Source: Candidatus Woesearchaeota archaeon (lineage in GTDB: Archaea; Nanobdellota; Nanobdellia; Woesearchaeales; JABGUJ01). From it: a DNA stretch of 64,000 nucleotides. Below the pieces are notes generated by a model that saw only the letters and a program-made list of their open reading frames with translations, searched no databases and was not told the origin of the DNA. The stretch covers positions 5,534 to 69,533 of the forward strand of contig JABGUJ010000001.1 of assembly GCA_018646625.1 (NCBI GenBank), in the 5' to 3' direction. Both the position numbers and the translations under genes were made by a program. Below are positions 18,339 to 54,860 of the stretch, one piece after another (position 1 is the first letter of the stretch; each line of letters starts with the position of its first letter).

Positions 18339-20167
18339 ATAAGATCCATAACATCTATTGGTTTCTGAATGATTTCCGCATCATAAAGAAAATCAGCCAA
18401 TTCAACATACTTATCATGTTGCGCATCTTCAATAGGATATTGTTCCATCAAAGGCACAGCAAAGGCCACATCTCTAGACAAACCCATATATTTAATCAAA
18501 ATCTCTCTCGCCTCGTCCGGATTCTCATCAATAAAATCCTGCGCATAAACAATAGCCCCCTTAAATCTTTTAGCAACATCTTCTTTATTCTCAATAAACT
18601 TAGTAGACATCGCACCACAACCAATATATGCCGGTTGTACCGCATCAGCAAATATGTTCCAAGAAATTGCTTTTACATTGCCTTGCAACAAAGCCACAGT
18701 CACAGTTGGTTGATAACCAAACAAAGCATCAATAGCTCCAGAGTTTAATGCATTCAATTGTTGAGAAGGTACTAACTTAATTAACTCAACAGACTCAGGA
18801 TCTACTCCCCTCTTACTCAAAAAAGTTTCAAAAAACAACGAAGCCGTTGAACCAGGAAATACTCCCACCTTCTTACCTACTAAATCATTCATCTCATTAA
18901 TGCCAGAATTATTCAAAGTCAACAACGCAGAAAAATTCGCAGTACCTGATTGTTCAGTCGAAGTATATATCATCAAATTACCAGGATTTAATGCCTCTAT
19001 AGCCAAAACCGGGACAACAGAAAATTCCACCACCGCATCAATACTATCTTGGACCAATGCTTCAGCCAATAAATTAGAACTCTCAATTAATTGATCTTCC
19101 ACTTGCAAACCATTCATCTCAAAGAAACCTTTCTCCTCAGCAACAAAAAGTGGCAAAGTAGGAACAATTTTTACATAGCCCACTCTAACCTTATCAAGTT
19201 TTTTTCTAGGTAATAACAGACTATTCGCGTCTATTTTTTTTTCAATAATACCAGAATTATAAAAGAAGTCTATATTATTCTGCAACACAAAAGGATCAAT
19301 ATTCTCTGCTTGATACAACAACGGTAATTTATCAACAACATCTTTCGCCAAGCCTATGTTATTTGAAAGAATACCCCTAGCAGAATCAGGATTATTAACT
19401 AAATAATCACTAGCTTCCATCATTGCTTTCTTCAGCCTAAGTACAACATCAGGATTCATTTCATAAAACCTAGTGGATATTGCATTAACCCCAATATAAG
19501 AAGACTCAACCGCATAAGAATACACATTTTCTTCTAATACTCGAACATCATAATTATGTATCAACATTGTTTTAAGAGGATCATAAGCCAGCAAGGCATC
19601 AATCGCTCCAGAAAGAAATGCTTCCATATGCAAACTTCCTTGCATCCGTACAAAATCGATAGAACTTACATCAACCCCTTCAGACGATAGTAAATGAGCA
19701 AGAATATTGGTTGCAGTAGTACCTGGATAAACTCCAATCTGTTTACCTTCAAGATCAGATAATGATCTGATCACAGAATCATTCTTAACCACCAATGCAG
19801 TAAATCCATGCTCCCTAGTCATTGGCCTAGCAAACAACAATTTAACCATACCAGGAGAAGATGATTCACTCATCAATATTGGAATAACTGATAGTGCAGA
19901 TGCAAAATCAATCTCATCAGTAAGCAAAGAATCAAGAGCCATATTAGAACTTCCTAATAAAACAGGTTCAACCTTAAGATTATATTTTTCAAAGAAACCC
20001 AAATCTTTTGCAACAAAATAAGTTAAACTGGGAGCAATATTTTGATACCCTATTCGAACTACATCATAATCTTGCTTTTCGCTCATTACAACATTTGCAT
20101 TAGTACCACAACCCAAAAATGAGCAGGTAATCAAAACTAAAAGTATCATACATAGTATCTTATCCAT
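18323..20167 (-). CDS. Paralogous lipoprotein with two tandem NMT1/SsuA-like solute-binding domains
   Basis: Lipobox FLGCGTNA; repeats VVRIGYQNIAPSLTYFVAKDLGFFEKYNL and VRVGYVKIVPTLPLFVAEEKGFFEMNGL; identical length (614 aa) to neighbour. Confidence 0.7.
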   Translation of the reverse strand: MDKILCMILLVLITCSFLGCGTNANVVMSEKQDYDVVRIGYQNIAPSLTYFVAKDLGFFEKYNLKVEPVLLGSSNMALDSLLTDEIDFASALSVIPILMSESSSPGMVKLLFARPMTREHGFTALVVKNDSVIRSLSDLEGKQIGVYPGTTATNILAHLLSSEGVDVSSIDFVRMQGSLHMEAFLSGAIDALLAYDPLKTMLIHNYDVRVLEENVYSYAVESSYIGVNAISTRFYEMNPDVVLRLKKAMMEASDYLVNNPDSARGILSNNIGLAKDVVDKLPLLYQAENIDPFVLQNNIDFFYNSGIIEKKIDANSLLLPRKKLDKVRVGYVKIVPTLPLFVAEEKGFFEMNGLQVEDQLIESSNLLAEALVQDSIDAVVEFSVVPVLAIEALNPGNLMIYTSTEQSGTANFSALLTLNNSGINEMNDLVGKKVGVFPGSTASLFFETFLSKRGVDPESVELIKLVPSQQLNALNSGAIDALFGYQPTVTVALLQGNVKAISWNIFADAVQPAYIGCGAMSTKFIENKEDVAKRFKGAIVYAQDFIDENPDEAREILIKYMGLSRDVAFAVPLMEQYPIEDAQHDKYVELADFLYDAEIIQKPIDVMDLMWGVE

Positions 20168-20307: not shown

Positions 20308-21246
20308 ATGAGAAGGAAAGTTATACAGCAAAATCCCACCACATTAGTAGTCTCATTACCAGCAAAATGGGCAAAAGCAAACGAAGTAACAAAAGGCGAT
20401 GAGTTGGACATTTCGGAACAAGAAGATAAACTAATTGTAAGCATAGCAGATCAATCAAAAAGAAAAGAAAGGACCGTCACATTAAATTTTAATAAAAAAC
20501 ATTGGGAAATCCCAAATAAAAAATATAAATATGTTCAAAGAATTCTTGCAGCACCATACAAAGCAGGATATGATGAAATCATAATAAGATCCGATTGCAA
20601 AGAAGTTTTAGAATACATCGAAAAAAGAGTTGAAACGTTCATAGGAATAGAAATAATTGACCAAGGAAGAGATTATTTCAAAATAAAAAACCTGGTTTCA
20701 GGGTTAGATGAAGAGTTTGATAATGTCTTTAGAAGAACATTACTAATAACAAATCGATTTGCCACAGAATCATTGGAAATAATAAAATCAAAAGAATATG
20801 ATGATCTAAAAAATCTTCTAAGACTAGAAAAAACCCATAACAAGATAACTGATTTCTGTAAAAGACTATTGGCAGCAAAAGACTACGATTCACCAAAGAA
20901 AACAAGATACCTTTATGCACTCATTGCAGAGAATGAAAGACTTGTCGACGAGTATAAAGACATCTGCAAATACATATTGAATAGTAAAAATCCAGAAATC
21001 AGCAAGGAAATTGTTACACTTCTAGAAGATACAAACAAATTAGTAGTACAATACTCAAATTCATTCTTTAAATTTGATCTCGAAAGCATCCACACATTAA
21101 CAAAAGGCTTTTGTAAAGAAGAAGAAACTGCGCTGCAATTATTCGATAAACCATCAACAAAAGATAAGAGAATAGTACATCACATTTTAAACATATTAAC
21201 AAAGACATACGAAATGGGCGAAGCCTTTCTAGAAATGAATATCTAA
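20308..21246 (+). CDS. AbrB/SpoVT-domain plus PhoU-like domain protein (putative regulator)
   Basis: N-terminal swapped-hairpin motif TTLVVSLPAKWAKANEVTKGDELDI; C-terminal helical PhoU-like repeats. Confidence 0.5.
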   Translation: MRRKVIQQNPTTLVVSLPAKWAKANEVTKGDELDISEQEDKLIVSIADQSKRKERTVTLNFNKKHWEIPNKKYKYVQRILAAPYKAGYDEIIIRSDCKEVLEYIEKRVETFIGIEIIDQGRDYFKIKNLVSGLDEEFDNVFRRTLLITNRFATESLEIIKSKEYDDLKNLLRLEKTHNKITDFCKRLLAAKDYDSPKKTRYLYALIAENERLVDEYKDICKYILNSKNPEISKEIVTLLEDTNKLVVQYSNSFFKFDLESIHTLTKGFCKEEETALQLFDKPSTKDKRIVHHILNILTKTYEMGEAFLEMNI

Positions 21247-23399
21247 GCACATCTTAGTAAATCCGATACTTCAGACCCAACAGAACAAAGTGCCTTATCT
21301 TCTCTAAATTTATGTGCAACTCGTTCTAACAAACCCTCTGGCGCATCAACATAATCACCAGAAAGATGAGCTGCCAGAACAGATCTCGACACGCCAGCAC
21401 CTTCAACAACACCCGCAACATACTCAGCACCTTCTCTGATTCGCGCATAAAACTCTCTGCTAATTAAACCTGTTAATTGCCTTTGAGTTGCTTCGTAGTT
21501 CTCGACGTTTGAATTAAACCTTTCAAGAACATCAAACACTTTTTGCTTAACTGCCAAAACCTCATCAAGAGATGCCTCAGGCCCAAGAACAGCATAATTT
21601 ACGACAATGTCTTCCGCAATCGACATCCTTTCAGCCGTAGAATAAAACCGTTCTTTAGGCGCGGGCAATGAATATAAAATATTTGTACTTTCAACTCTAT
21701 GAGGAGTAAACAAACCCTCAACATCTTGAGTTTTCAAATCAATACCATAGTGAACCCCTAATTCAATATCTTTATTATGCCAAAAAACTCTATCCATCCA
21801 ACCAGTATTCTCAGCATACATTTCATCAAAAGCATCTTTAATCTTAATCGATAATCCCTTTGCACGATCCGAAGAAGTATTCCCTCTAGAATCTAAGAAG
21901 GCTCTAAACTCAATTTCAACACCAAACTCCGCAAACAACTCTTCAACTTCCCGCTTAGTATCTCCACCTTTTACCCAATCATCATAAACATAAACCTTCT
22001 CTCCAGGCTTGACATCACCAAACCTAGATCTAAAAGCATCTAACTGGAGCTGCTTCGCATTAGAATTCAACATAGAATAAATCCAAAAATGTCTTTCCTC
22101 CATCACATCTAAAACAGGAGCTAGCTCATCTCTCGCAACACGCATCTTCTCTTCATCACCGCTCTGCCTATACTGTTTCTCTTTTTTTCGTAAAGCAGAA
22201 ATATCTCCTAATGCTTTCCGAACAGCACCAACATCACCAGAATAACTATCTGCAAAATCATCAGTTCTAACATAAGCTTCAGTCACTTTTTTTGCAGAAG
22301 TAAATTTAAAATAATCCACACTTGCATCTAACTTAACATCTAAAGTCGCAGACATTGCTTGCATCATCTTACCAATAGGTCTTGCACCTCTATCTGCAAT
22401 GAAAACCCTATCAACACCATTCTGAATTATATCTTCCAAATGCGGAAGAACAGCAAAAGCAAGACGACGAGCATCAATGTAATGCTCTCGTTGTTGTTGT
22501 CTCTTTTGTTGAGTCGGCGCAGCCACCACAGATCTAACATTTCTTGAATAGTCGCCCAAAGTATGATAGACAAAACCAATAGGAAGACCATTCTTCTCAG
22601 AAAAATCTCGCACTAAATCTAAATCATCACTAATACGATCAAGATTATCTTGCAATCCACATAAATGTTCAGCAGGAGTACCAACCACCGTACTGTAATT
22701 ACCATCATCAGTACAATCTTCGAATTGATCAATCAAACCTTCAACATTATCACGCACTGCAACCATAAAAGCAGGAGAACCATAATCAGTAAGAAATTTA
22801 CGATCTCTATCATCAAGAAAGTTATCATACAAATCCCAGAACTCAGGTTCCACAGGAGTAAAAGAAGAAGCAGTTTGTCTTATCAGATCAGAAAAATTCT
22901 CATCAGGATCCCGAACATAACATTCTGCCAATTGTACAAAAAAAGCAGTCCGATTATAATCCATGTTGTAAAGCAAAATATCATGCACAATACCACTAGC
23001 ATTAGTAACTTCTTTTCCAGCAAGAATCTCTTCCATAGAATCACTCAAACCATAACGTCGCAAATGATCTTTATAATCAGAAGAATTACCACCACAAACA
23101 CAGTGACCACTTAAGTCATCACAACCAACATAATTATCCTCTTTAATATTCTCTTGGTCATCTGCAAAGAAGTTACCGAAAAAATAAGCAGTCGTACAAT
23201 GATCACCATCACGCTGAGCATAAACATTAGCAAGCTTTTGAAGAACTTCTATTTTATCAAGTGGAGATTCCTGAGAAATATTACGCCTCATCTCCCAGCC
23301 TGAACTGACAGGAGCACTAGGATTACATCCAAACAACATACTAGCAAGTACAGCAGTGCTAATAACTCTACCAAATCGACTGAAAGGATTTAAAGCCAT
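21243..23399 (-). CDS. Large secreted lipoprotein of unknown function (718 aa), Asp/Arg-rich
   Basis: Signal peptide with lipobox SMLFGCNPS; composition unlike the Lys-rich housekeeping proteins. Confidence 0.5.
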   Translation of the reverse strand: MALNPFSRFGRVISTAVLASMLFGCNPSAPVSSGWEMRRNISQESPLDKIEVLQKLANVYAQRDGDHCTTAYFFGNFFADDQENIKEDNYVGCDDLSGHCVCGGNSSDYKDHLRRYGLSDSMEEILAGKEVTNASGIVHDILLYNMDYNRTAFFVQLAECYVRDPDENFSDLIRQTASSFTPVEPEFWDLYDNFLDDRDRKFLTDYGSPAFMVAVRDNVEGLIDQFEDCTDDGNYSTVVGTPAEHLCGLQDNLDRISDDLDLVRDFSEKNGLPIGFVYHTLGDYSRNVRSVVAAPTQQKRQQQREHYIDARRLAFAVLPHLEDIIQNGVDRVFIADRGARPIGKMMQAMSATLDVKLDASVDYFKFTSAKKVTEAYVRTDDFADSYSGDVGAVRKALGDISALRKKEKQYRQSGDEEKMRVARDELAPVLDVMEERHFWIYSMLNSNAKQLQLDAFRSRFGDVKPGEKVYVYDDWVKGGDTKREVEELFAEFGVEIEFRAFLDSRGNTSSDRAKGLSIKIKDAFDEMYAENTGWMDRVFWHNKDIELGVHYGIDLKTQDVEGLFTPHRVESTNILYSLPAPKERFYSTAERMSIAEDIVVNYAVLGPEASLDEVLAVKQKVFDVLERFNSNVENYEATQRQLTGLISREFYARIREGAEYVAGVVEGAGVSRSVLAAHLSGDYVDAPEGLLERVAHKFREDKALCSVGSEVSDLLRCA

Positions 23400-23896: not shown

Positions 23897-25033
23897 TTAA
23901 ACAAAAACAAATTTTTCTTTTTCTACCATTTTTATTGCAAGAGGCTTAGACACATCTCCAAATTCATCGAACGTAGTCAATCCTCCGACACCCCTATAGT
24001 CAGTAACACCATATAACTCATCTCTAATACAGATAGAGTCTTGGCCACAAACTTCTAGAGCTAAAGCAATAATCATAACAGCATCATAGCTATCTGCTGC
24101 AGTTCTCTCAGGCAAATCACCATAACGAGTAACAAAGTCATCAACAAAATCACCAATGATCATATCATCACTCTCAGGATCGAATGCAGGTGCAGTGTAA
24201 AGTATACCATCAGCCGCTTCACCAGCCACATCAAGTAAATCTTGACTTTCAATAATCACAGGCGCTAAGATTTGTGATTCAATACCCAATTCTTTTGCTT
24301 GTTTAACAGCCAACTCAAGTGACAAACCAGCAAAATAAACAACATCCGAATCGGATGACTTAATCTTAATCAACTGTGTTCTAAAATCATTAACAGATTT
24401 ATCATAAGACTCCTGCACAATAACCTCACCACCCAGTTCCCTAAATCTTGTAACAAACGCATCATTGTAATCTACACCATTAGCTAAATTCAAAAACAAC
24501 GTCGACGCAGTCCTCGCACCCAACACATCATAAGCATACTCAGCCATATACTTTCCATGTACATCTCCACTTATACTGTTCCTGAAAACAAAATCTCCTG
24601 CATCACGAATTCTAGGAGCAGATGCAACCGTAGAAAAAACAACAGTTTGCGAGATCTCAGCAACTGGAGCTACAGCCATAACGTTTGATGAACTTGTAGG
24701 ACCAATAACAACAGAAACTTTGTCATTATCAATTAATTTTCTAAGTGCCAACAAAGCCCTAGTCTTATCAAACATACTATCCTCATACACAACTTCTAAT
24801 CTTTTACCGCTAATGCCGCCTTTAGAATTAATTTCTTCAACAGCTAAATCAACACCTTTTCTAACATTCTCTGCATGCCATGCCGCCTTCCCAGTAAAAG
24901 GTTGAACCGCACCGATCTTGATAACATCATCTTCAACAACTTGAGCAGTAATTTGACTTGAACCGCAACCACCCAAAATAATGATCATAAATAAAGCTAA
25001 AGCTATCTTAAATTTCATTTGTAGTACCTCCAA
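23897..25033 (-). CDS. LivJ-like (Peripla_BP_6) solute-binding lipoprotein, orphan (cassette 1)
   Basis: Lipobox ILGGCGSS; N-terminal IKIGAVQPFTGKAAWHAENVRKGVDLAVEEINSKGGISGKRLEVVYEDS typical of the Leu/Ile/Val-binding family. Confidence 0.75.
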   Translation of the reverse strand: MEVLQMKFKIALALFMIIILGGCGSSQITAQVVEDDVIKIGAVQPFTGKAAWHAENVRKGVDLAVEEINSKGGISGKRLEVVYEDSMFDKTRALLALRKLIDNDKVSVVIGPTSSSNVMAVAPVAEISQTVVFSTVASAPRIRDAGDFVFRNSISGDVHGKYMAEYAYDVLGARTASTLFLNLANGVDYNDAFVTRFRELGGEVIVQESYDKSVNDFRTQLIKIKSSDSDVVYFAGLSLELAVKQAKELGIESQILAPVIIESQDLLDVAGEAADGILYTAPAFDPESDDMIIGDFVDDFVTRYGDLPERTAADSYDAVMIIALALEVCGQDSICIRDELYGVTDYRGVGGLTTFDEFGDVSKPLAIKMVEKEKFVFV

Positions 25034-25139: not shown

Positions 25140-25838
25140 ATGAAAGAAGCGCTAAGAGAGTATGGGCTTTCAGACAACGAAGCAAACGTATATCTAGCAG
25201 TTCTAAAGTTAGGAGAATCACCCGTAACAGATATAGCCAACAAAGCCAACACTTACAGAACCTTAACGTACGAAGTCCTAAAATCATTAGAAGACAAAGG
25301 TTTAGTCAGCTCAGTAATAAGAGATAAGAAAAAACATTTTATTGTAGCAAGCCCTGAAAAATTATTACAAGGATTAAAAGAAAAAGAAAGAAGAATTCAA
25401 GAAATCATGCCAGACCTATTATCAATTCACAAATCTGTTTCTATTAAACCGACAATGACCGTATATTCAGGTACAGAAGGAATCAAAAATATTTTCCAAG
25501 ACATTCTTAACGTTGGAGAGGATTTCATAGCCATTGCATCAGTTGAACAAGTCAGATCAAAAATTGATTTTATGTTTAAACACTTCATATTAAAAAGAGT
25601 TGAACTGAAAATGAAGGCTAAACTAATTATTGACAAAGAACCACTAACAAAAGAACTCACAGAGTACAAAGTAATGGATTTTAGTGTACCAACCCTTCTA
25701 TATGTATACGCAAATAAAGTTGCAGTAATAAATGTTGGAACTGAATTAGTAGGAATGATAATTGAAAGTGAGGATTACGCTAAAACACAAAAAATGATGT
25801 TTGATTGGATGTGGAACACAGCTAAGAGTAAGCCATAG
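25140..25838 (+). CDS. TrmB-family HTH transcriptional regulator, short form (cassette 1)
   Basis: N-terminal LREYGLSDNEANVYLAVLKLGESPVTDIANKANTYRTLTYEVLKSLEDKGLVSS matches the TrmB HTH. Confidence 0.7.
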   Translation: MKEALREYGLSDNEANVYLAVLKLGESPVTDIANKANTYRTLTYEVLKSLEDKGLVSSVIRDKKKHFIVASPEKLLQGLKEKERRIQEIMPDLLSIHKSVSIKPTMTVYSGTEGIKNIFQDILNVGEDFIAIASVEQVRSKIDFMFKHFILKRVELKMKAKLIIDKEPLTKELTEYKVMDFSVPTLLYVYANKVAVINVGTELVGMIIESEDYAKTQKMMFDWMWNTAKSKP

Positions 25839-26952
25839 GAATACTATTTCTAATAACTTTAGGAGCTAAAACTTTACCAAAACCGCCAGTAACAGAATCA
25901 TAGTCTAAAACACCAGACGCACCTTGATAATTTCTCAACATTGCAACATACGCGCCTAAACAATCACTATTGAACTTAGAATTTTCACATTTGACTAATG
26001 CATTCTTCAATATCATCAATGCATCATAGCTATCTCTATTAACAATACCACTACTACGATTATAACGAGACATAAACTCAGACTCAAACCCTTTATCAAC
26101 AATACCAGAATAAACATACAATACCCCTTCATCAGCACCAGCCGCACCTTGAATCTCGTACGGTTCCTCGACAGCCATATCAGACAACAAAGTTAAATTC
26201 AAACCCAACTCCCTCATCTGATTAAATATTAATCCGCCCCTACCATAAAGAACAAGTATTGCATCAGCACCAGATTCAGAAATCTTAGCTAACCGAGTTC
26301 TAAAATCAGAATCCGAATAATCATAACTTTCAACAACTGTCAACTCACCACCTAAATTCCTCAACGTACTACCAAAAGCCCCAATATAAGCTTGCGCCCA
26401 ATCATTGTCAATGTGAATCACACCCACTTTTCGAACACCAGACTCAAAAGCAACTTTAGCCAATTCTTCACCTTCGCGACCTATCAAAAATCTCGTACTA
26501 AAATAATATTTAGTCAACTTACCAAAATTATCCCCAGGAGTAATTAGAAAAACTTTTTTCTCATCCACCAAATTTGCCGCAGCTTTAACAGAAGAACCAC
26601 AAAATGGACCCAACAAAGCAACAACATCATCCATCTCAACTAATTTATGAACGGCATTAACAGTATTCTGAGGTCTACAACCATCATCTTCGTAAACCAA
26701 CTCAATTAATCTACCATTAACACCACCTAAAGAATTAATTTCTTCGAGAGCCATTTCAAATCCGTCCCGCATACGTTCACCATAAAACGCAATCGGACCT
26801 GCAAAAGGACCTACCACTCCAACCTTAATCGGCTCTAGCTCCACACTCTCCTCTACAACATTATTAGAACAACCTACAACAAACAAAAGCAACAAAATCA
26901 TAAAAAATGCTAGTCTCATAGTATATTCATTAACAGAAGCATATTTAAACAT
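25822..26952 (-). CDS. LivJ-like solute-binding lipoprotein, orphan (extra copy)
   Basis: Lipobox VVGCSNN; IKVGVVGPFAGPIAFYGERMRDGFEMALEEINSLGGVNGRLIELVYEDD. Confidence 0.75.
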   Translation of the reverse strand: MFKYASVNEYTMRLAFFMILLLLFVVGCSNNVVEESVELEPIKVGVVGPFAGPIAFYGERMRDGFEMALEEINSLGGVNGRLIELVYEDDGCRPQNTVNAVHKLVEMDDVVALLGPFCGSSVKAAANLVDEKKVFLITPGDNFGKLTKYYFSTRFLIGREGEELAKVAFESGVRKVGVIHIDNDWAQAYIGAFGSTLRNLGGELTVVESYDYSDSDFRTRLAKISESGADAILVLYGRGGLIFNQMRELGLNLTLLSDMAVEEPYEIQGAAGADEGVLYVYSGIVDKGFESEFMSRYNRSSGIVNRDSYDALMILKNALVKCENSKFNSDCLGAYVAMLRNYQGASGVLDYDSVTGGFGKVLAPKVIRNSIPMAYS

Positions 26953-26971: not shown

Positions 26972-27622
26972 ATGACACTTATTGTAGGTATTGACGAAGC
27001 AGGACGTGGACCAGTCATCGGACCATTAGTTATTGCAGGGGTAATGATCAATGAAAAAGACGAACCAAAACTAATCAAATTAGGCGTAAAAGATTCTAAA
27101 CAACTTACGGAAAAAAGAAGAAATGAGTTATTTCAAGAGATTAAAGACTTAGGCGTAGAATATGAAATTCTAATCATACATCCAGAAGAAATTGATGAAA
27201 CTCTAAGAAGTCCATCATCTAACTTAAACTGGTTAGAAGCAGACAAATCTGTAGAAATAATAAAAAAATTAAAACCTGATGGCGTCATATTAGATTGTCC
27301 ATCAACCGTTCCAGAAAAATACAAACAATATGTTGAACAAAAACTCAAAGACAAAACGAACGTGATTGCAGAACATAAAGCAGACGATACATATCCGGTA
27401 GTCAGTGCAGCTTCTATCTTAGCAAAAGTAACAAGAGACGCAGAGATTGAAGCAATAAAAAAGAAATACGGAGACTGCGGATCAGGCTATCCTTCAGATC
27501 CTAAAACTCAAGATTTTCTTAAGAAAAATTTTAAGAAATTTCCTGAAATATTCAGACAAACTTGGGAAAGTTACAAAAATATAATAAGAAAAAAAGAACA
27601 AAAAGGTTTAGGAGATTTTTAA
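26972..27622 (+). CDS. rnhB: Ribonuclease HII
   Basis: IVGIDEAGRGPVIGPLVIAGV catalytic motif and C-terminal SAASILAK motif. Confidence 0.88.
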   Translation: MTLIVGIDEAGRGPVIGPLVIAGVMINEKDEPKLIKLGVKDSKQLTEKRRNELFQEIKDLGVEYEILIIHPEEIDETLRSPSSNLNWLEADKSVEIIKKLKPDGVILDCPSTVPEKYKQYVEQKLKDKTNVIAEHKADDTYPVVSAASILAKVTRDAEIEAIKKKYGDCGSGYPSDPKTQDFLKKNFKKFPEIFRQTWESYKNIIRKKEQKGLGDF

Positions 27623-28755
27623 GCATCTACAAACTCGCCATCCCTAAACACTTTCAAGATAAAATCGCTTTCATCTCTTATAACATCTCCATTGTGATCA
27701 AATCTAAGACGACCAGAAGAACCTTCATGATCTACCCCGTATAATCCGTTTTTTATACAGACCGGATCTTCACCACACTGCTCTAACAACCCGGCATAGA
27801 TATATACAATATCATAAGCCAAGTAAGGATGAATTGTTGGTTCCTTCCCAGCAATCTCAATATATTTCTCTCGAAAACGTTTAGTCTTAGGATTATCGCT
27901 CTCCATATCAAACTCATAAAAGGAATATATTCCTTCAGCAGCCTCTCCCGCAATCTGATAAACTTCAGGACCCCACGAAGACGGATTAATCATAAATGGA
28001 ACATCAATACCCAACTCTCTTGCTTGTTTAACTATCAGACCCCCTTCTTCTGAATGAGACACAAAAAACATAACATCAGGATCACCCGACTTTATTTTCA
28101 AAAGATAAGTTCTAAAATCATGATCTCCGGTCTCAAACTTTTCATAAGCAATAATCTCGCCGCCCAACTCTTCAAACTTCTTCACAAAAGCATCTCCTAA
28201 CCCAACACCATAATCAGAGTTCTTCACAATAACTGCAGCTTTCTTAGCATTAAGAACTGAAACCGACTTTTCAGCAATCTTAAAAGCTTCAACATCGCCA
28301 GCAACCTTGGCCCTAAAAGTAAAATCGCCAGCATATCTCAAGTGAGGAACCGCAGAACCCGGAGTAAATATAGGAATTTGTGATTGCTCAGCAAATGGCG
28401 CAATGTACAAACTATTAACAGTCACATCACTTATCACTGCACTAACACCTCTTGCGGCTAGACTTTGAAATGCTTTTATCGCTTCCTTAGGTTGAGCCAT
28501 ACTATCTTCCATAATAATCTCTAAACGTTTACCATTTATTCCACCATTAGAATTAATTTCATCTTGCGCAATCTGCACGCCTCTCCACACCCTAACACCA
28601 TAAGAATCAGAATTCGCCCCACTCATTGGCATGACCGCCCCAATAGTATAAACTTCTTCTTGCTTAACTACTTCACCAGTAACCCCACATCCAACTATAA
28701 ACATCAAAGCTAACGCTACTAACAATAATCTTAATTTCATTTTTACCTCCAACAA
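27619..28755 (-). CDS. LivJ-like solute-binding lipoprotein, orphan (cassette 2)
   Basis: Lipobox IVGCGVTG; YTIGAVMPMSGANSDSYGVRVWRGVQIAQDEINSNGGINGKRLEIIMEDS. Confidence 0.75.
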   Translation of the reverse strand: MLEVKMKLRLLLVALALMFIVGCGVTGEVVKQEEVYTIGAVMPMSGANSDSYGVRVWRGVQIAQDEINSNGGINGKRLEIIMEDSMAQPKEAIKAFQSLAARGVSAVISDVTVNSLYIAPFAEQSQIPIFTPGSAVPHLRYAGDFTFRAKVAGDVEAFKIAEKSVSVLNAKKAAVIVKNSDYGVGLGDAFVKKFEELGGEIIAYEKFETGDHDFRTYLLKIKSGDPDVMFFVSHSEEGGLIVKQARELGIDVPFMINPSSWGPEVYQIAGEAAEGIYSFYEFDMESDNPKTKRFREKYIEIAGKEPTIHPYLAYDIVYIYAGLLEQCGEDPVCIKNGLYGVDHEGSSGRLRFDHNGDVIRDESDFILKVFRDGEFVDA

Positions 28756-28868: not shown

Positions 28869-29621
28869 ATGAACACAGAATTACTAAGAGAAATTGGCCT
28901 AACAGACTCTGAAATAAAGGTATATTTAGCATTATTAGAACTAGGATCATCTACCGCGGGACCGATAATAGAAAAATCAAAAGTAACATCATCAAAGATT
29001 TATGAAATACTAGAAAGGCTGATGCAAAAAGGATTAGTTAATTTTGTTATCAAATCTGGAACTCGCTACTACGATACACAATCTCCTTCAAGACTAAAAG
29101 AATATCTACAAGAGAAAAAAAGAACAATACAAGAACAAGAAATCGAAATTGAGAAACTAATTCCGCAACTTGAAATTAAAAGAGAATTAGCGAAGAACAA
29201 GAACGAAGCTTCAATCCATAAAGGCATCAAAGCAATTAAAAATTTCTACCTAAACATATTAGATGAGCTAAATCCAGGAGATGAATATTTTGTTCTTGGT
29301 GCAAATTATGGAGATCACGCAATGGGCATAAGATCCTTTTTTCATAAATACCACCAACAAAGAGCAGATAAAAAAATCAAATTAAATATGCTAGTAAACT
29401 CAGATACAAGAGGCACACTAGTAGAAACTACCGCCCTCAACTCGGAAGTTCGTTACCTCCCCCCGCATTTAATGAGTAACATGACAACAGTATTTTACAA
29501 AAACAAAGCATTTATTTTCTTCCTAACATCAGAACCCACCGGCTTCTTAATAGAAAGCAAAGAAGTCGTTGACGGATTTAGGTCATACTATGACACTTTC
29601 AAGAGAATAGCAAAAAAATAA
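28869..29621 (+). CDS. TrmB-family HTH regulator paralogue (cassette 2)
   Basis: LLREIGLTDSEIKVYLALLELGSSTAGPIIEKSKVTSSKIYEILERLMQKGLVNF. Confidence 0.7.
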   Translation: MNTELLREIGLTDSEIKVYLALLELGSSTAGPIIEKSKVTSSKIYEILERLMQKGLVNFVIKSGTRYYDTQSPSRLKEYLQEKKRTIQEQEIEIEKLIPQLEIKRELAKNKNEASIHKGIKAIKNFYLNILDELNPGDEYFVLGANYGDHAMGIRSFFHKYHQQRADKKIKLNMLVNSDTRGTLVETTALNSEVRYLPPHLMSNMTTVFYKNKAFIFFLTSEPTGFLIESKEVVDGFRSYYDTFKRIAKK

Positions 29622-29683: not shown

Positions 29684-31033
29684 GTGAATTTTATTAACGA
29701 CAACAATCATGCATTTTATTTAGTAATGATAGTTTCTATAGTTGCAATTGTAGGAATATTTATTATTGTTTCTAGGGGACCAAACACATTAGAGAAAGAT
29801 ATTGCTGGAGAGGCAACTAGAGCAATCACAGGAGAGATCATAAAAAAACCATTAATGACGCATGTAAATGATGCGTGGATTTACTCCAACATGGAAGTCT
29901 TAGAACTTGGGAAGACTGTCAAAATTCACAGAACAAATGTACTTTTCAAGAAAAAATTAACACCCGAGATAAAAAAAATAAGAGACGCAAAAGCAACAAG
30001 ATTTGTTAGAATACCAAAGTTCATGATCTGTCTAAACAACATATGCAATAACTATAAATTGAGCGATAAAATTGTGATTGAGGAAATAACATATACGCTA
30101 AGCAGTACAGACAACAAAATTAGATTAATCTCTAACAATATTGATGATTGGGATATTCTTCCTCAGATAGCAACACAAATATTTGAACAGACAGAAACCC
30201 ATAATATTCCCGTGATAGAACCGGCAGGCCATTTTAAGACCTATATAGAAGAGAATGTCGATCAAAGGGTCCCTAAATACTTACAAGTTGGCATAATAGT
30301 AGATGACACCGACTACACAATAACTGATGAAGAAATAGAGGACTTCATCAGTCTTATGGACAAAGAACTGTCGAAAAAAACAAACATAAATGTGAAATTA
30401 CACGGAATAAGACATACAAATTTTGGAATAACGGCAGATAATTATTATAACGAAAACAATGATAATCCACCAGATTATGTCATTATCTTTAGAAGCAATA
30501 CAATCTCATTAAGTTATGGAGGTTACGCAATAACCTCCTCTAACCTCATCGAAGAAGGATACTGTAATAATTTTGTTTCTCCTTACCAGAGTGCAAATCT
30601 TATTTGGGGTGCTGTAATTGATTGGACTCATATATATTCCGGATGTGGTTATGACTTAGAGCATTACAAAAGCACAGGAGAGTTAAATCATATAAGTAAC
30701 GTAAGTTTAGATGATGGTTCATGCAAAAACCAAGCAGGGATAGCTTGTGTATTTAACGACATTGTTGAGTACTATGCCTGCAGTAATAAGGATCCCTCCC
30801 ACCCCTATCTACAAAGCAAGATGTCTTTTTTAGCATTTGTAGCCATACATGAATTATTACACCACTTCGGCAATACCCATAATTACGATCATTTTGGAAC
30901 AGACACATGTGATGATATCATGGGAAGCGAAGATTACAAGCAAAGCTGGAATCATCTTTCGTCTTTTGGCATGTGCCCCTATACCATCGACAATCTCGCA
31001 ACAAGTTATAATTATCTGCGAATATGTAGTTAA
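29684..31033 (+). CDS. Membrane-anchored putative zinc metallopeptidase with metzincin-type HExxHxxGxxH motif
   Basis: N-terminal TM anchor; near the C-terminus HELLHHFGNTH followed by Cys/Met-containing segment (TDTCDDIMGS...MCPY); otherwise no similarity recognised. Confidence 0.4.
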   Translation: MNFINDNNHAFYLVMIVSIVAIVGIFIIVSRGPNTLEKDIAGEATRAITGEIIKKPLMTHVNDAWIYSNMEVLELGKTVKIHRTNVLFKKKLTPEIKKIRDAKATRFVRIPKFMICLNNICNNYKLSDKIVIEEITYTLSSTDNKIRLISNNIDDWDILPQIATQIFEQTETHNIPVIEPAGHFKTYIEENVDQRVPKYLQVGIIVDDTDYTITDEEIEDFISLMDKELSKKTNINVKLHGIRHTNFGITADNYYNENNDNPPDYVIIFRSNTISLSYGGYAITSSNLIEEGYCNNFVSPYQSANLIWGAVIDWTHIYSGCGYDLEHYKSTGELNHISNVSLDDGSCKNQAGIACVFNDIVEYYACSNKDPSHPYLQSKMSFLAFVAIHELLHHFGNTHNYDHFGTDTCDDIMGSEDYKQSWNHLSSFGMCPYTIDNLATSYNYLRICS

Positions 31034-31034
31034 G

Positions 31035-32198
31035 TCACTCAACCAAAACAAATTCACCATTTCTAACAGTTTTCATTTGTATTGGCCGATAAAGGCCCCA
31101 AATTCCATTCTCAAACTCCAAGTCTCCGCCAGCTCCAGAATATGATTCCATAGACGACAAGTACTCCACTAAACAGTCAGCATCACCATCACAAACTTCA
31201 AAACCTTCAAATAATAACATCAAAACATCATATCCAACAGCACCATAGTACTTATCAACTAATGCCTCACCATAATGCAATTCATACTCAGCTATAAACT
31301 CAGCACTCACAACATCTTCAGGATCAAAGTCATACATAATAGCAGTAACACCATCAGCTGCGTCACCCGCTAAAGCAACAACACTATCATAAGACACCAA
31401 CTCTTGGCCATATACAGGCAACTCAACTTCAAGCTCCTTAATTTGCTTCAACATCATTGCCGCACCAGGAATACCAATTGGTAAAATCAACATCGCTTCT
31501 GGCTCTGCATCTTTAACCTTTAGGATTTGAGTTCTCATATCTGAAGAACCAAAGTCATAAGTCTCAGCAATAATAACATCCCCACCAAGTTTCTCAAACT
31601 CTTCTGTGAAAACTTCATAATAACCAATGGGATAATCATTGTTTTCATAGATTACACCAACAGTTTTTATTTCATGAGAGCTAATCAACTTTGCAGCTTC
31701 AGTTGCAGCCAACCGTGAAGATGCAGATATTCTAAAAACATAGTCACCCGCATATGTTATCTTTGGTGATGCAGCTACAGGAGTAATATGAATTATTTTG
31801 TTTGCTTCCGCAATCGGAGCAACAGCCAATGCAACACTGCTACAAATTCCTGTAACAATTACATCAACTTTATCCACATTAACAAACTTATTTGCAATAA
31901 TTGCAGCCTCACTTGGATTACACCTGCTATCCTCAACTACAATCTCAATCTTCTTACCACCCATATTGATCTGATCTAAAGCCAACAAAAGGGATTTTTC
32001 AACAGGATAACCAACACTAGCCAACGGCCCGGTCTGAGGAACCATGAATCCAACCTTAACTACATCTTTCTCAACTTTTACAACTTCACCAGTAACTGTA
32101 CCACAACCAGTAAATACGCTAAACACTAACAATAAAGCTACCGCTAAAACAATCAGTTTATTCATTTTAAGCCTCCAGATGACCTCTTTAGAAGCCAA
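31035..32198 (-). CDS. LivJ-like solute-binding lipoprotein, orphan (cassette 3)
   Basis: Lipobox FTGCGTVTG; VKVGFMVPQTGPLASVGYPVEKSLLLALDQIN...KIEIVVEDS. Confidence 0.75.
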   Translation of the reverse strand: MASKEVIWRLKMNKLIVLAVALLLVFSVFTGCGTVTGEVVKVEKDVVKVGFMVPQTGPLASVGYPVEKSLLLALDQINMGGKKIEIVVEDSRCNPSEAAIIANKFVNVDKVDVIVTGICSSVALAVAPIAEANKIIHITPVAASPKITYAGDYVFRISASSRLAATEAAKLISSHEIKTVGVIYENNDYPIGYYEVFTEEFEKLGGDVIIAETYDFGSSDMRTQILKVKDAEPEAMLILPIGIPGAAMMLKQIKELEVELPVYGQELVSYDSVVALAGDAADGVTAIMYDFDPEDVVSAEFIAEYELHYGEALVDKYYGAVGYDVLMLLFEGFEVCDGDADCLVEYLSSMESYSGAGGDLEFENGIWGLYRPIQMKTVRNGEFVLVE

Positions 32199-32268: not shown

Positions 32269-33027
32269 ATGAAAAAAGAGAAACTATCTTCAACATTAGA
32301 GAATATAGGCCTCACTAAAGGCGAAATCACAATTTACTTCTCATTACTAGAATTAGGCTCAACAACTACGGGAAAGATAATAGAAAACGCACAAATATCA
32401 TCTGGCAAAATATACGAAATACTTGACAAACTGATAAACAAAGGTTTGGTGAATTACATAGTAAAAGGAAAAATAAAATATTTTAATGCAGCCACACCAG
32501 ATTCTCTTTTAGAATTTGTTGAAGAGAAAAAATCTAACCTAGAAAAGAGAGAAAAAGAAATCAGAAACATTCTTCCAGATCTAAAAGAGTTACATAAATT
32601 CACAGAAGAAGAAAGTTGCGCAGTAGTCTATAAAGGGATCAAAGGATTAAAACATGCAGCAGATCTAACATTGGAACACGCAGAACCTGGTGATGAATAC
32701 ACAGCAATGGGATTAGTGGAACACAAACCAGAAAAATTCAACCTATTCTGGAGACAGTTCCATCAAAAACGTGCAGAGAAAGGTGTAAAAACAAGACTAC
32801 TATTTGCAGAGGAAAGCGAAAGATATGCAAAACAACTAAAAAACATTCCGTTATCAGAAGTAAGAGTCTTAAAATCAGTTAGCGCATCAGCTGTAACACT
32901 TATAGGCCCACATCTGAAAATAATAGATTACGACAGTGAAACCACAATATATATCAAGAATAAATACATAGCAAAATCATTCAAAGCATTCTTTGAAAGT
33001 CTTTGGAAACTAGGAGATAAAGTATAA
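32269..33027 (+). CDS. TrmB-family HTH regulator paralogue (cassette 3)
   Basis: LENIGLTKGEITIYFSLLELGSTTTGKIIENAQISSGKIYEILDKLINKGLVNY; GAGGTG SD 5 nt before ATG. Confidence 0.7.
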   Translation: MKKEKLSSTLENIGLTKGEITIYFSLLELGSTTTGKIIENAQISSGKIYEILDKLINKGLVNYIVKGKIKYFNAATPDSLLEFVEEKKSNLEKREKEIRNILPDLKELHKFTEEESCAVVYKGIKGLKHAADLTLEHAEPGDEYTAMGLVEHKPEKFNLFWRQFHQKRAEKGVKTRLLFAEESERYAKQLKNIPLSEVRVLKSVSASAVTLIGPHLKIIDYDSETTIYIKNKYIAKSFKAFFESLWKLGDKV

Positions 33028-33851
33028 TGACCCACATCAACGTCGATAAAAAACAACTAGACAAATTAAGAGAGCAAGGGTTCTTCGATATAGAACTAAA
33101 AACAGAATATGAAACACGAAGAATGCAAAGACTTCAACCCAAAACATCATTAATTCTCTACAATTCAAAAAAACTAGTAATCCAAGCAAGTGATGAAATC
33201 AAAAAACAAGTTGAACACACACTTAAAGACCTAGCAATTGGTAAGAAGTTAACAAAACAAGAAGTACAAAAGATCATCCTCACAGGCACCACCATTGGTT
33301 CGGATGAAACTCTAAAAGGCGATACATTTGGAGGGTTAGTTGTCGCAGCCGTAAGGGTAGATGACAAAACAAGAGAATCATTAGAATTACTAGGAGTACA
33401 AGATTCAAAAAAAATCAAAGATGAAAAGATTGCAGGATTCTCAGAAGAAATAAAACGAATAGTAGGGAAAGAAAACTACGCAATAAAAAACGTCAAACCA
33501 AAAGAATACAACAAACATGATTCACAAGATCTCCTTAACGCACTCCACACTCAAGTCGCATTAGAACTTGGTGAAGGAACTCACATAGTAGATCAATATC
33601 CAGGATGTAAAGTGGGGGATATCAAAGAATTCAAAGCAGAATCAAAATACCCCAGCGTTGCAGCCGCATCAATCATTGCAAGAGACGCAGCGTTAAAACA
33701 ATTAGGAACATTAAGCAACGAACTAGGCATAGATATTCCAAAAGGTTCAACACATGTTAAAGAAGCATTAGAATATCTAAAGAGGTCAAAGAGAAACCCT
33801 GAAGAGTTCGTAAAGATGCACTTCAGAAATGTTAAAGAAATATTCAGCTAA
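33027..33851 (+). CDS. rnhC: RNase HIII-like ribonuclease (RNase HII family with about 95-aa N-terminal extension)
   Basis: GSDETLKGDTFGGLVVAAV resembles the RNase HIII GSDE-GKGD catalytic motif; C-terminal KYPSVAAASIIAR matches the RNase HII-family SAASI motif; start overlaps the TrmB stop by 1 nt. Confidence 0.55.
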   Translation: MTHINVDKKQLDKLREQGFFDIELKTEYETRRMQRLQPKTSLILYNSKKLVIQASDEIKKQVEHTLKDLAIGKKLTKQEVQKIILTGTTIGSDETLKGDTFGGLVVAAVRVDDKTRESLELLGVQDSKKIKDEKIAGFSEEIKRIVGKENYAIKNVKPKEYNKHDSQDLLNALHTQVALELGEGTHIVDQYPGCKVGDIKEFKAESKYPSVAAASIIARDAALKQLGTLSNELGIDIPKGSTHVKEALEYLKRSKRNPEEFVKMHFRNVKEIFS

Positions 33852-39993: not shown

Positions 39994-42282
39994 TTATTTT
40001 CTTTTTGCTTCTCTTTCTAAATCAGCATAATATGCTTGAGGTCCACCAATCTCAGAAACCTTATAGAATAAATCGTCATTTAAACCTGGAAGATAAACTT
40101 CTACTCTCGCGCCTTTAGTTGGTCCATTAGTAATATATCGAATTAAACCGCCCAATCCCCCTGTAATCATCTCGTGACTCGCAATTGCTCCAATACTATG
40201 ACCATCTTTTTTAGAAGAAGGTACCTCTAAACCGTCTGTCAATTTTACAGCTAGCTTAGCATCAAGATCTCCTGATTGAGTTATAATGGTCTTAACCAAA
40301 TCAGATTTTCCACTTAGAGTGTACGGATTTTCTTCAGCAGTAATAAATACTTTACCCCGCACAGATGCCTCAGCGGCGTTATCAACTAAATTTAACATCG
40401 CCGCCATCAATACATCTCGCTCAACATTAACATAGATATGTTCAGGTACTTGATTAATTATTTGTGCATGTCCTCGTGGAGATAAGTGTGCAACAATCTC
40501 ATCAATAAATCCTTTATAGTCAATAATAACAAACTTACCTTTGCGTTCTGTACCCGCCATAAGATCTTCAAGAAGATCTCTAAGTTTCACAGCTTGTTGA
40601 CAATTGAAAGCATCCTTCTTAATATTAGACGGAACTTCATTCGTTGGCGCACTAACCAAATAATCAAGACCATCATACAAAAAGCCATCATCATTATATC
40701 GGTCACCCGCAATCAAGACCAAATCTCCCAAATAAGAAGACAAAGAATCTCTTAAACATCTAAACGCATTAATCGTCAAAGGATTTGCTAAGTTTTTCCC
40801 ATCATGCGCTTTCTTCTTAACTCGCTTTCTTTCAACGAAAGCAGCTTCTTGAGTAGCAGTTAATCTCTCAACTTCCGCATCAGCCTCTGCAGCTCTTCGA
40901 GCAGCCTCGGCCTCACTAACTCGAGCACCCATAGTCTCCAACTGAGACTCAACCCTCTCAGTAACCAATCTAGATCTTTCAACAAGAGACTGACCCATTC
41001 GCGCCGAGTACGCTTGATTAGCTTCATCAATCTTTCCTGCAAGTACAACACGCGCCGCCTTTCGAGAAAAAGCTCTCCAAAATCTATTTGTTGGCTTATA
41101 GTAATAATGATCAAAACAAGCAGGACAATTATAAAAAACCCCTCTGCGAAAGATTCTCTTACCATGCAATTTTAAATCTTCATCCAGTTCACAGAGTAAA
41201 CCAACCTGCAATCCAGGCATCCCAATCAATCTTGGATCTAATTGTTGAGAATAGTTAGATAACACCCCAAAATTTCGAGAAGTCGATCCCCCTGCCACTT
41301 GCGGTGCAAGTGCATGTTCTAAGGTTTCAAGATCATACCCCCAACCCCGATCAACAGGGCGTTGCGGATCAAGCAATCTAACATACCTTCCAAAATATTT
41401 ACCATCTAAGAAAACAGACGTACCGTCTCTGCGCAGTTCATAACCAGTACCAAAATAAGTATTTAATCGATCAACAGTATCTTCTACACGAGATTGAGAA
41501 TGAGTTGCAACATGCTTAAATGGTTTAGCCCTCCACCCGAAAATAGGAATAGAAGAAACTAAAGGAGAAACAGACATCATACCTTGAGTAAACCATTCGT
41601 CCCAAAGACTATTTCTAACAGAATATTCACCCATCTGAACAGATGCTCCGGGTTCAGGACCGCCAAGATCAACATGTCTCATATCAAGAACTGTATTAAA
41701 TCTTTCACTCAAAACATGAGTCAGTGCAACAATGTTTTCAGGAATAGAAAAAGCAGTAGATTGATCAACATCTCTTACATGACGATGCGTCTCAGTAGTT
41801 ACAGACAAAGTAATTGAAGGATCGGGAGGATCAAGCAATGCAGCCCATTGCAACAGATTATGCATAAAAACATCTTCCATAACTTCATAAGGAATTCCTT
41901 TGAACGGAGAAGAAAACAAACGAATTAATCTTTCATCACTACACTCTAAAACATCATCCTTTTCTGCAGCCAAAGCATATATTTGAAACAATCTATTTTC
42001 TCTCAATCCATCCCAAAAAAAACTCACAGAAGAATACCAATCAACAAAAGAAAAATCACTTAACACCCGCCCCCCTTCCATTTTTTTAAGGTTAGGTCTT
42101 TTTTCGTACTTACCAACAACTTTGGCCCTCATAACATCCAGATCTATAAGTAAACTTCTACCAGAAATTGTTTTAGAAAGTTTATGCTTAATTGCCTTAC
42201 GATCTTCACCCTCTCTCAGAACCCTATCTAGAACATCATCTAGAGAGCTTGCGCTCGCTCCTCCTACTGCACTATGAACCAT
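39994..42282 (-). CDS. Large cytoplasmic protein with C-terminal GHKL/histidine-kinase-like ATPase domain (762 aa)
   Basis: C-terminal N-box-like MLNLVDNAAEAS, G-box-like GGLGGLI and ...EVYLPG ending; Arg-rich coiled-coil EAEAARRAAEADAEVERL; no TM segments; N-terminal 500 aa unrecognised. Confidence 0.45.
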   Translation of the reverse strand: MVHSAVGGASASSLDDVLDRVLREGEDRKAIKHKLSKTISGRSLLIDLDVMRAKVVGKYEKRPNLKKMEGGRVLSDFSFVDWYSSVSFFWDGLRENRLFQIYALAAEKDDVLECSDERLIRLFSSPFKGIPYEVMEDVFMHNLLQWAALLDPPDPSITLSVTTETHRHVRDVDQSTAFSIPENIVALTHVLSERFNTVLDMRHVDLGGPEPGASVQMGEYSVRNSLWDEWFTQGMMSVSPLVSSIPIFGWRAKPFKHVATHSQSRVEDTVDRLNTYFGTGYELRRDGTSVFLDGKYFGRYVRLLDPQRPVDRGWGYDLETLEHALAPQVAGGSTSRNFGVLSNYSQQLDPRLIGMPGLQVGLLCELDEDLKLHGKRIFRRGVFYNCPACFDHYYYKPTNRFWRAFSRKAARVVLAGKIDEANQAYSARMGQSLVERSRLVTERVESQLETMGARVSEAEAARRAAEADAEVERLTATQEAAFVERKRVKKKAHDGKNLANPLTINAFRCLRDSLSSYLGDLVLIAGDRYNDDGFLYDGLDYLVSAPTNEVPSNIKKDAFNCQQAVKLRDLLEDLMAGTERKGKFVIIDYKGFIDEIVAHLSPRGHAQIINQVPEHIYVNVERDVLMAAMLNLVDNAAEASVRGKVFITAEENPYTLSGKSDLVKTIITQSGDLDAKLAVKLTDGLEVPSSKKDGHSIGAIASHEMITGGLGGLIRYITNGPTKGARVEVYLPGLNDDLFYKVSEIGGPQAYYADLEREAKRK

Positions 42283-53735: not shown

Positions 53736-54860
53736 CTATTCAACAACCACAAAACCGTTCTCCGTTATTTGTTTAACAAAAACTTCTCTTTCTGCCACTT
53801 GTTCTTCTGTAAATGAGAACACACCACTCGCCCCGTTATAATCAAACACATTTCGACTTTCTGAAACCATACAATCAACACTGTCACAATTACTACCAAT
53901 TCCGGCCATTAACATAATTGCATCATAAGCAAACGCGGCGTTCATCTCAGGCTCTTCGCCGTATTTCACCTCATACCTGACCGCAAAATCACTTTCATCG
54001 ACCCTAAACGGATAAGTATATGTAACCCCATATGCGCTTTTACCAACAGTATTAACTAACAATTTTGTTTGCGATAACCAAGGACCAATAAATTTAACAT
54101 CCACATCATATTCGCCAGCCTGTTTTAACAGATTTGCAAAATGAGGAGGATTAAATGAAGTAAAGATTGCCTCAGTTCTATGTTCTTTTGCTTTCAACAA
54201 AGCCGTTCTCAAATCAGCAGATTCAAATTTATCAACAGATTCAATAATTGTTATTTCACCACCATTTTGTTCAAAAGCACGTTGAAAATGTTCTCTATAA
54301 CTTTGTCCGAAAAAATCATGTTGATGAAAAATCGCAACCTTAGTTACGCCATTATCAATAACGTGCTCCGCAAGTTTATCCATTTCATTCGATATAGCAG
54401 GAGGCATGTTAAACAAATGCGGGTGTTTGCCAATCAAAGGATCGGTTCTTACCGAAATACTATAAGTTAAAGCTTTTCCTTCAGTTATAGGTGCAACAGC
54501 AGGAGTTACTGCGCCACAATATACAATAATCTTGTCCAAACCATCAACATCCAAAAGCTTACTAACTGTTTTAGTACCTTCAGTTGGACTGCACTTATCA
54601 TCTTCAACAATAAGTCGTACCAGCCTATTATTAATTCCACCTGCTCGATTTATATCATCTACAGCCATCTGCGCCCCTTGTAAAGCCCACTCACCATACA
54701 GAGCAACAGGACCCGTTAAAGGTAAACTGAACCCAATCTCAATATCCTCATAAACGCTCTTACCAGTTATGGAACTAGACCCACAACCCATGATTAATAC
54801 TACCACTATCAATATCATAGCCAATTTCACTCTAACCACCAAGTCAAAAGAAAGCAACAA
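53736..54860 (-). CDS. LivJ-like solute-binding lipoprotein, orphan (cassette 4)
   Basis: Lipobox IMGCGSSS; IEIGFSLPLTGPVALYGEWALQGAQMAVDDINRAGGINNRLVRLIVEDD. Confidence 0.75.
   Translation of the reverse strand: MLLSFDLVVRVKLAMILIVVVLIMGCGSSSITGKSVYEDIEIGFSLPLTGPVALYGEWALQGAQMAVDDINRAGGINNRLVRLIVEDDKCSPTEGTKTVSKLLDVDGLDKIIVYCGAVTPAVAPITEGKALTYSISVRTDPLIGKHPHLFNMPPAISNEMDKLAEHVIDNGVTKVAIFHQHDFFGQSYREHFQRAFEQNGGEITIIESVDKFESADLRTALLKAKEHRTEAIFTSFNPPHFANLLKQAGEYDVDVKFIGPWLSQTKLLVNTVGKSAYGVTYTYPFRVDESDFAVRYEVKYGEEPEMNAAFAYDAIMLMAGIGSNCDSVDCMVSESRNVFDYNGASGVFSFTEEQVAEREVFVKQITENGFVVVE

Follow-up and report, generated by a model that had tools for sequence, protein, structure and literature searches.

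A predicted membrane-anchored, adamalysin-like zinc endopeptidase in a Candidatus Woesearchaeota archaeon

We analysed a 64,000-nucleotide stretch of contig JABGUJ010000001.1 (assembly GCA_018646625.1) from a Candidatus Woesearchaeota archaeon; the whole stretch is called the window below. At 29684..31033 (+ strand, stop codon included) it carries a gene for a 449-residue protein, which is identical to NCBI MBT3406143.1 (HN419_03155) and is labelled hypothetical. This gene is best read as encoding a membrane-anchored, outward-facing, adamalysin-like zinc endopeptidase, a reading to which we assign a probability of about 0.7. The protein has a hydrophobic anchor and belongs to a family with strongly conserved residues, and the predicted fold of its C-terminal domain is confident and resembles that of metzincins. 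An original prediction, made from the letters of the DNA, had proposed a candidate surface protease with an N-terminal transmembrane anchor and an exact HExxHxxGxxH motif; the protein now appears to be a probable surface zinc endopeptidase, its activity being predicted.

The open reading frame (ORF) starts with GTG, the first start codon past the upstream stop. The start is ambiguous: some public annotations of the same protein cluster use the in-frame ATG at 29726, which gives a protein of 435 residues. The transmembrane segment is retained with either start. The GTG at 29684 sits inside GAGGTG, and about 40 nt upstream of the gene lies a TTTAAA box that could, judging by its sequence, be the gene's own archaeal promoter. 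A scan for sigma-70 promoters and intrinsic terminators, which is ill-suited to archaea, gave counts near those of shuffled controls. Copies that are identical or at least 90% identical were found on eight contigs of Woesearchaeota metagenome-assembled genomes. Because of these near-identical copies, and because the C-terminal 254 residues are conserved in 188 protein clusters, the gene is real.

The predicted catalytic domain and its putative zinc-binding motif

Single-sequence searches of Pfam, NCBIfam and PDB returned nothing above threshold, and the sole relevant hint was Reprolysin_3 (E 0.037). A word-indexed protein search found three homologues (40-43% identity) that covered only the C-terminal 55% of the protein; when it was repeated with alignments, almost no further relatives appeared, as the variable N-terminal regions swamped the candidates. 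We then searched 1.84 billion cluster representatives exhaustively with HMMER, using a profile of residues 196-449. At E<=1e-3 it matched 188 proteins, of which 171 remained at E<=1e-10 and 63 at E<=1e-30. Nearly all the matches span the whole 254-residue domain, which lies at their own C-terminus, and the 188 clusters come from uncultivated Chloroflexota, Patescibacteria, DPANN archaea, Acidobacteriota and others. The original prediction had recognised no similarity in the protein beyond its motifs. This holds for residues 31-195; residues 196-449 (30269..31030, + strand) are as a whole one conserved catalytic domain, with a metzincin/adamalysin-like fold, of an uncharacterised family.

The window protein matched the family profile at 6.8e-127 across its full length, with every invariant and nearly invariant column present, and it fits the pattern of about 250 residues that defines the family (GGY...CN.F.SP...W.H...CGYD...C.N..G..CV...Y.C...HExxHxFGxxGNxDH[FY]GTxxC...[MI]CP...F..S...C). 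No Pfam or NCBIfam model reached threshold for this domain, and no Pfam family was matched consistently among 130 members scanned. The weak Pfam matches that recurred among these members were to zincin families only, namely Reprolysin_3 (15), Aspzincin_M35 (6), Reprolysin_5 (3) and M64 (2). The weak PDB matches of the family profile were snake-venom metalloproteinases, ADAM17, ADAM8 and the predicted zincin-like metalloprotease 3e11, and such matches, ADAM17 among them, extend from the HExxH to the C-terminal Cys. A further PDB match, SAKe6FR, was rejected as a repeat-protein artefact on the 'GYD' segment.

HELLHHFGNTH occupies residues 389-399; after it come NYDHFGTDTCDDIMGS and, farther on, GMCPY (residues 429-433). 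Given the protein's own composition, HExxHxxGxxH is expected by chance 6.5e-5 times, and the HExxH of this protein is the only one among ORFs of at least 150 residues in the window. To count conservation, 133 full-length domains were aligned and numbered as in the window protein. H389 (133/133), E390 (130/133) and H393 (132/133) are essentially invariant. F395 is conserved in 109/133 and G396 in 113/133; D402 is present in 107/133 (80%) and H403 in 128/133 (96%). Outside the motif, G279 (129/133), G280 (122/133) and P432 (111/133) are also conserved.

Position 399 behaves differently. It is Gly in 88 of the 133 domains (66%), and a His at that spacing was found in only 2/130. In the alignment with the first three homologues, H399 is replaced by Gly in all three, whereas none of them departs from N400, D402 or H403. 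The counts thus give hHEhhHxFGxxGNxDH[FY]GTxxC as the family motif, with a conserved third His at +14 from the first; the spacing between the first and third His ranges from 12 to 17 in some members. The extended metzincin motif is H-E-x-x-H-x-x-G/N-x-x-H/D, with the third ligand three residues past the Gly (PMC11674741). The window protein matches it by letter (H389...H399), but the family instead has the conserved His at +14. With H399 poorly kept among its relatives, the window protein's agreement with the 11-residue metzincin consensus is a peculiarity of its own; the exact string named in the original prediction is thus present, yet it is not the family motif.

We define the predicted zinc-binding motif as HELLHHFGNTHNYDH (residues 389-403; 30848..30892, + strand), on the basis of the conservation counts and of the active-site helix (residues 381-395) in the structural model. 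Within it, H389 and H393 are the predicted zinc ligands, E390 the putative general base and G396 the likely turn, and conservation points to H403 as the third zinc ligand in the family. H399 stands one helical turn before H403, at the canonical metzincin position; to judge by the helix register of the model it could lie close to H403, and it might substitute for H403 or assist it.

Predicted fold, cysteines and relation to known metzincins

An AlphaFold2 model of the domain, built from a 130-sequence alignment, had a pLDDT (predicted local distance difference test) score of 96.8 and a predicted template modelling (pTM) score of 0.93. It shows a confident metzincin-type fold. The modelled elements run from a strand (199-207) through a long backing helix (215-233) and strands at 236-245, 265-269, 280-284 and 308-312 to a Cys-rich insert with a hairpin (354-366). 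The active-site helix (381-395), which bears H389, E390 and H393, follows and ends at G396; after it come a one-turn helix (399-402), H403, short helices at 407-413 and 418-421 and the C-terminal helix (432-439). The model thus has the beta-sheet, backing helix, active-site helix and C-terminal subdomain with its C-terminal helix that make up the metzincin catalytic-domain fold.

Structural comparison gave the highest values for ADAM8 (11.5), ADAMTS5 (11.4), an elapid venom metalloproteinase (3k7n, 11.3) and atrolysin C (11.2), followed by ADAM22 (10.8), ADAMTS1 (10.6), ADAM17 (10.4), CpaA (9.7), mirolysin (9.6), ulilysin (9.1), archaemetzincin (8.8) and fragilysin (8.5); about 145 residues superpose at about 3 Å. 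The top Foldseek matches were also adamalysins (E about 1e-4), with a template modelling score of only about 0.3, because about 100 residues are inserts. In the model, the catalytic domain is therefore nearest in fold to adamalysins and ADAMs.

Four cysteines, 97-100% conserved, mark the Cys-rich insert (C321-G-Y-D ... C347 ... C355 ... C366; 30644..30781, + strand): C321 and G322 are present in 133/133, Y323 in 130/133, C347 in 130/133, C355 in 133/133 and C366 in 129/133. C355 lies opposite C366 across the predicted beta-hairpin, in the register of the model, which would make C355-C366 a probable disulfide and leave C321-C347 as a probable second one. C409 (120/133) and C431 (122/133) bound a segment of the C-terminal subdomain (30908..30979, + strand), which was delimited by Cys co-occurrence, alignments and Met conservation and holds both M413 and M430. 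C409 and C431 occur together in 116 members and are both missing from 7. C294 and C448 are both present in 65 members and both absent from 48, with 20 discordant. Because of this co-occurrence the two pairs behave as disulfide partners, and C294-C448 and C409-C431 are probable disulfides.

In ADAM17, disulfides join C423 to C453 and C365 to C469. The HMMER and hhalign alignments matched C409 with C423 of ADAM17, C431 with C453 (...FSQC SKQ..., where the C-terminal helix opens), and C448 with C469. The hhalign comparison of the family with the ADAM17 catalytic domain had a probability of only 28% over 22 columns, and the C-terminal part of the ADAM17 sequence agreed with the PDB alignment. On these alignments the two variable pairs would reproduce the ADAM topology, C294-C448 corresponding to C365-C469 and C409-C431 to C423-C453. 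This fits the adamalysin pattern, in which one disulfide runs from the segment past the third His to the start of the C-terminal helix and another ties the C-terminus to the N-terminal subdomain.

The Met residues of this segment had been put forward as a possible Met-turn. Neither of the two candidates is strictly conserved. At position 413 (CDDIMGS) 44% of members have Met, a share that rises to about 60% when small shifts are tolerated; at position 430 (GMCP) they have Met (51%), Ile (27%) or Leu (8%). The spacing of M413 is closer to that of the ADAM17 Met-turn, since it lies 18 residues ahead of the Cys of the C-terminal helix, as M435 does with respect to C453. M430 stands immediately ahead of the C-terminal helix (432-439).

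Despite the likeness in fold, the domain differs from the adamalysins, ADAMs and ADAMTS proteins of MEROPS M12B (ADAM8, 4dd8; atrolysin C, 1dth; ADAM17/TACE) in several respects. Identity to them is 12-17%, and Reprolysin_3 scores 15-16 bits, below its cut-off of 22.4. The third His is at +14 (...GxxGNxDH) rather than at +10 (...GxxHD), and the CIM Met-turn motif is lacking. Ahead of the active-site helix there is a 50-residue Cys-rich insert (residues 316-375), and about 100 of the domain's 254 residues do not superpose. No cysteine-switch prodomain, disintegrin or EGF module was recognisable in the protein. Although it would work like an adamalysin-type metzincin, the protein cannot be filed under M12B, given its different motif and the failure of the sequence models.

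The lower pappalysins (ulilysin, mirolysin and cytophagalysin; M43) have the canonical HExxHxxGxxH, a Met-turn with a Tyr switch two residues on and calcium sites, none of which is conserved here. Leishmanolysin (M8) is a surface-anchored metzincin whose third His is displaced from +10 by an insertion; that insertion is about 60 residues long, compared with 4 here, and leishmanolysin was absent from the top structural matches.

Predicted surface location, spread of the family and competing readings

The N-terminal transmembrane signal-anchor, AFYLVMIVSIVAIVGIFIIVS, covers approximately residues 10-30 (29711..29773, + strand). It was identified by hydropathy, and homologues have signal or lipoprotein peptides in the same place. 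Residues 10-30 are the sole strongly hydrophobic segment of the protein, with a Kyte-Doolittle 19-mer mean of 3.08, which confirmed the anchor seen in the original prediction. It has neither a lipobox nor an obvious signal-peptidase site. An N-terminal hydrophobic segment was found in 96 of the 124 homologues that start with Met; by eye, these segments are signal peptides, lipoprotein signals or anchors. Family members also carry N-terminal accessory domains (SLH, Big_2, PG_binding_1, CARDB and Somatomedin_B), and the first four of these are of a surface type. To judge by these sequence features, the members of the family are secreted or lie at the cell surface.

The anchor is separated from the catalytic domain by a lineage-specific region (residues 31-195; 29774..30268, + strand), which contains C116 and C121. 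It has no homologues beyond its own Woesearchaeota cluster, and the profile matches begin at residue 197. A full-length AlphaFold2 model from four sequences had a pLDDT of 40 overall and below 50 in this region; the region could act as a stalk or be a prosegment. Some relatives (e.g. P0017) pass directly from a lipoprotein signal to the catalytic domain; therefore, a prodomain is not a family feature.

To examine the distribution of the family, a degenerate DNA pattern for HExxHx[FY]G-x5-DH[FY] was run against GTDB contigs with one genome per species, a sample biased to members with exactly that spacing. It returned 79 stretches, of which 50 encode true family members (E<1e-30). About 31 of these loci are from Chloroflexota (mostly Anaerolineales), six from Patescibacteria, six from DPANN archaea (Micrarchaeota, Woesearchaeota and an unclassified archaeon), four from Acidobacteriota, two from Oligoflexia/Bacteriovoracaceae and one each from Phycisphaeraceae, Gammaproteobacteria and Deltaproteobacteria. 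The nearest named relative of the window domain is from an uncultured Phycisphaeraceae bacterium (L050, 44% identity); Micrarchaeota members share 32-40% and the other Woesearchaeota copy (L039) 31%. That a planctomycete homologue is nearer than a Woesearchaeota one suggests inter-domain horizontal transfer of the family.

Taken together, these data are consistent with a type-II (N-in, C-out) anchored enzyme that would be displayed outside the Woesearchaeota cell. On the active-site helix, H389 and H393 would hold the zinc while E390 would polarise the catalytic water; past the turn at Gly396, a one-turn helical insertion would lead to the third ligand, H403 (HExxHxFGxxGNxDH). A hydrophobic residue of the C-terminal subdomain, M413 or M430 here and Met, Ile or Leu in relatives, could pack beneath the metal, and four predicted disulfides (C294-C448, C321-C347, C355-C366 and C409-C431) would rigidify the extracellular domain. 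Such an enzyme would most likely cleave extracellular or surface proteins or peptides, possibly for nutrient scavenging, for remodelling of its own surface or for action on a host surface.

Several observations speak against this proposal. All sequence matches to known peptidase families fall below curated thresholds, and the family as a whole does not have its third ligand three residues past the Gly, the spacing typical of metzincins. Met is missing from both candidate positions, M413 and M430, in 27 of 117 members. The flanks of the transmembrane segment have almost no charge bias, so the topology rests on the homologues and the cysteine pattern. Finally, no family of neighbouring genes is shared by more than 4 of the 50 family loci, and the genomic context gives no clue to the substrate.

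Three other explanations were considered. The least likely is an archaemetzincin-like enzyme, in which HELLHHFGNTH would be a canonical HExxHxxGxxH with H399 as third ligand and the downstream cysteines would form a structural Cys4 second metal site; along these lines the original prediction had suggested a possible Met-turn and second metal site, and we consider this reading very improbable. The archaemetzincin signature is HEXXHXXGXXHCX4CXMX17CXXC, whose four cysteines form the second metal site (PMC3427221). It is absent here: the segment after H399, NYDHFGTDTCDDIMGS, has no Cys at +11 and neither CX4CXM nor CXXC, Peptidase_M54 was not matched in Pfam, and H399 itself is rarely kept in the family. 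The invariant cysteines lie upstream of HExxH rather than downstream, and the others are kept or lost pairwise like disulfide partners, with an ADAM17-like topology. In addition, archaemetzincins are small, measuring about 160-190 residues, and cytoplasmic, and they lack an anchor, unlike the window protein; ADAMs are clearly better structural matches, and the family is mostly bacterial. With its signature absent, the protein cannot be filed under M54 either.

A functional tie to the flanking genes is a less remote prospect, though still an unlikely one. The protease would be TrmB-regulated and would release peptides or amino acids for LivK-type binding proteins. A gene for a TrmB-family regulator (28869..29621, + strand; Pfam TrmB 1.7e-17), itself part of a divergent pair with a binding-protein gene, ends 62 nt before the protease gene on the same strand. 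Downstream, a Peripla_BP_6 (LivK-type) lipoprotein-like binding protein (31035..32198, − strand; Pfam 6.5e-50) is encoded convergently, with the stop codons 1 nt apart. The window holds five such binding proteins and four TrmB regulators, and DPANN archaea depend on external nutrients. The placement beside binding proteins noted in the original prediction is therefore real, but no other genome examined keeps the link: among the 50 family loci from other genomes, no Peripla_BP_6 or TrmB homologue was found within the fetched flanks. Other binding-protein/TrmB pairs in the window are without a protease, and the protease gene could be transcribed from its own promoter at the TTTAAA box. The adjacency thus gives no evidence for a functional link.

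Slightly less probable than this tie is a metzincin fold that does not serve as a general protease, be it a specialised hydrolase (CpaA/OgpA-like, acting on glycoproteins or the cell wall), an antagonistic effector aimed at a host or neighbour cell, or a non-catalytic binding module. The near-invariance of the catalytic Glu and the three His speaks against a non-catalytic module, and a specialised hydrolase would still use a peptidase mechanism and so overlaps with the anchored zinc endopeptidase that we favour.

The sequence hallmarks of metzincins are HExxHxxGxxH/D and a conserved Met-turn (PMC11674741), and the family conforms to them only loosely. Judged against Pfam and NCBIfam, the proteins described here probably form a hitherto undescribed metzincin-like family in which the third ligand is shifted and the Met varies. 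A more specific version is tentative, and we put it at somewhat less than even odds: a new metzincin family beyond Pfam and NCBIfam, with the third zinc-binding His set after a short helical insertion past the Gly turn (HExxHxxG-x5-DH) and a dispensable Met-turn Met (Met, Ile, Leu or absent), that is concentrated in DPANN and Patescibacteria (reduced or episymbiotic organisms) and in Anaerolineae. If true, it would suggest a shared role at the cell surface or host interface that was spread by horizontal transfer. A widespread prokaryotic family whose adamalysin-like fold is confidently predicted seems to relax both hallmarks, the third His being shifted by four residues and the Met not being invariant; if confirmed, this would extend the definition of the metzincin clan and provide a simple bacterial and archaeal model for ADAM-type catalytic domains. 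For the biology of DPANN archaea and the candidate phyla radiation (CPR), the protein is a candidate surface protease in organisms about whose interaction with hosts and uptake of nutrients little is understood. With a profile of the 133 aligned sequences, about 190 clusters of hypothetical proteins would be relabelled as predicted metallopeptidases; this would help peptidase specialists and the annotation of DPANN, CPR and Anaerolineae genomes, even though the mechanism itself is unsurprising.

Other genes in the window

The five Peripla_BP_6 (LivK-type) genes of the window are located at 23897-25033, 25822-26952, 27619-28755, 31035-32198 and 53736-54860, all on the − strand. Four TrmB-family regulators of about 250 residues (25140-25838, 28869-29621, 32269-33027 and 54930-55703) are each divergent from a Peripla_BP_6 gene, an arrangement that looks like a repeated module. 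No ABC permease or ATPase gene was seen directly beside the Peripla_BP_6 genes in the window. The pairs are scattered among housekeeping genes, including those for DnaK, DnaJ, ArgRS, two RNase HII paralogues, SMC and HerA.

The two RNase HII-family genes (26972-27622 and 33027-33851) are 5.4 kb apart, and each lies just downstream of a binding-protein/TrmB module. The product of the second (274 residues) has an N-terminal extension of about 90 residues and may be RNase HIII-like. ORFs of 718, 762 and 532 residues at 21243-23399, 39994-42282 and 44168-45766 (− strand) had no Pfam match at E<=1e-5. In a 312-residue ORF at 20308-21246, only a short N-terminal MazE/AbrB-type antitoxin-like domain was matched (Pfam E 4.7e-7). 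Two overlapping, adjacent ORFs of 614 residues at 16494-18338 and 18323-20167 (− strand) each carry duplicated NMT1/THI5-like (SsuA/phosphonate-type) substrate-binding domains, and are tandem paralogues of double-domain binding proteins.
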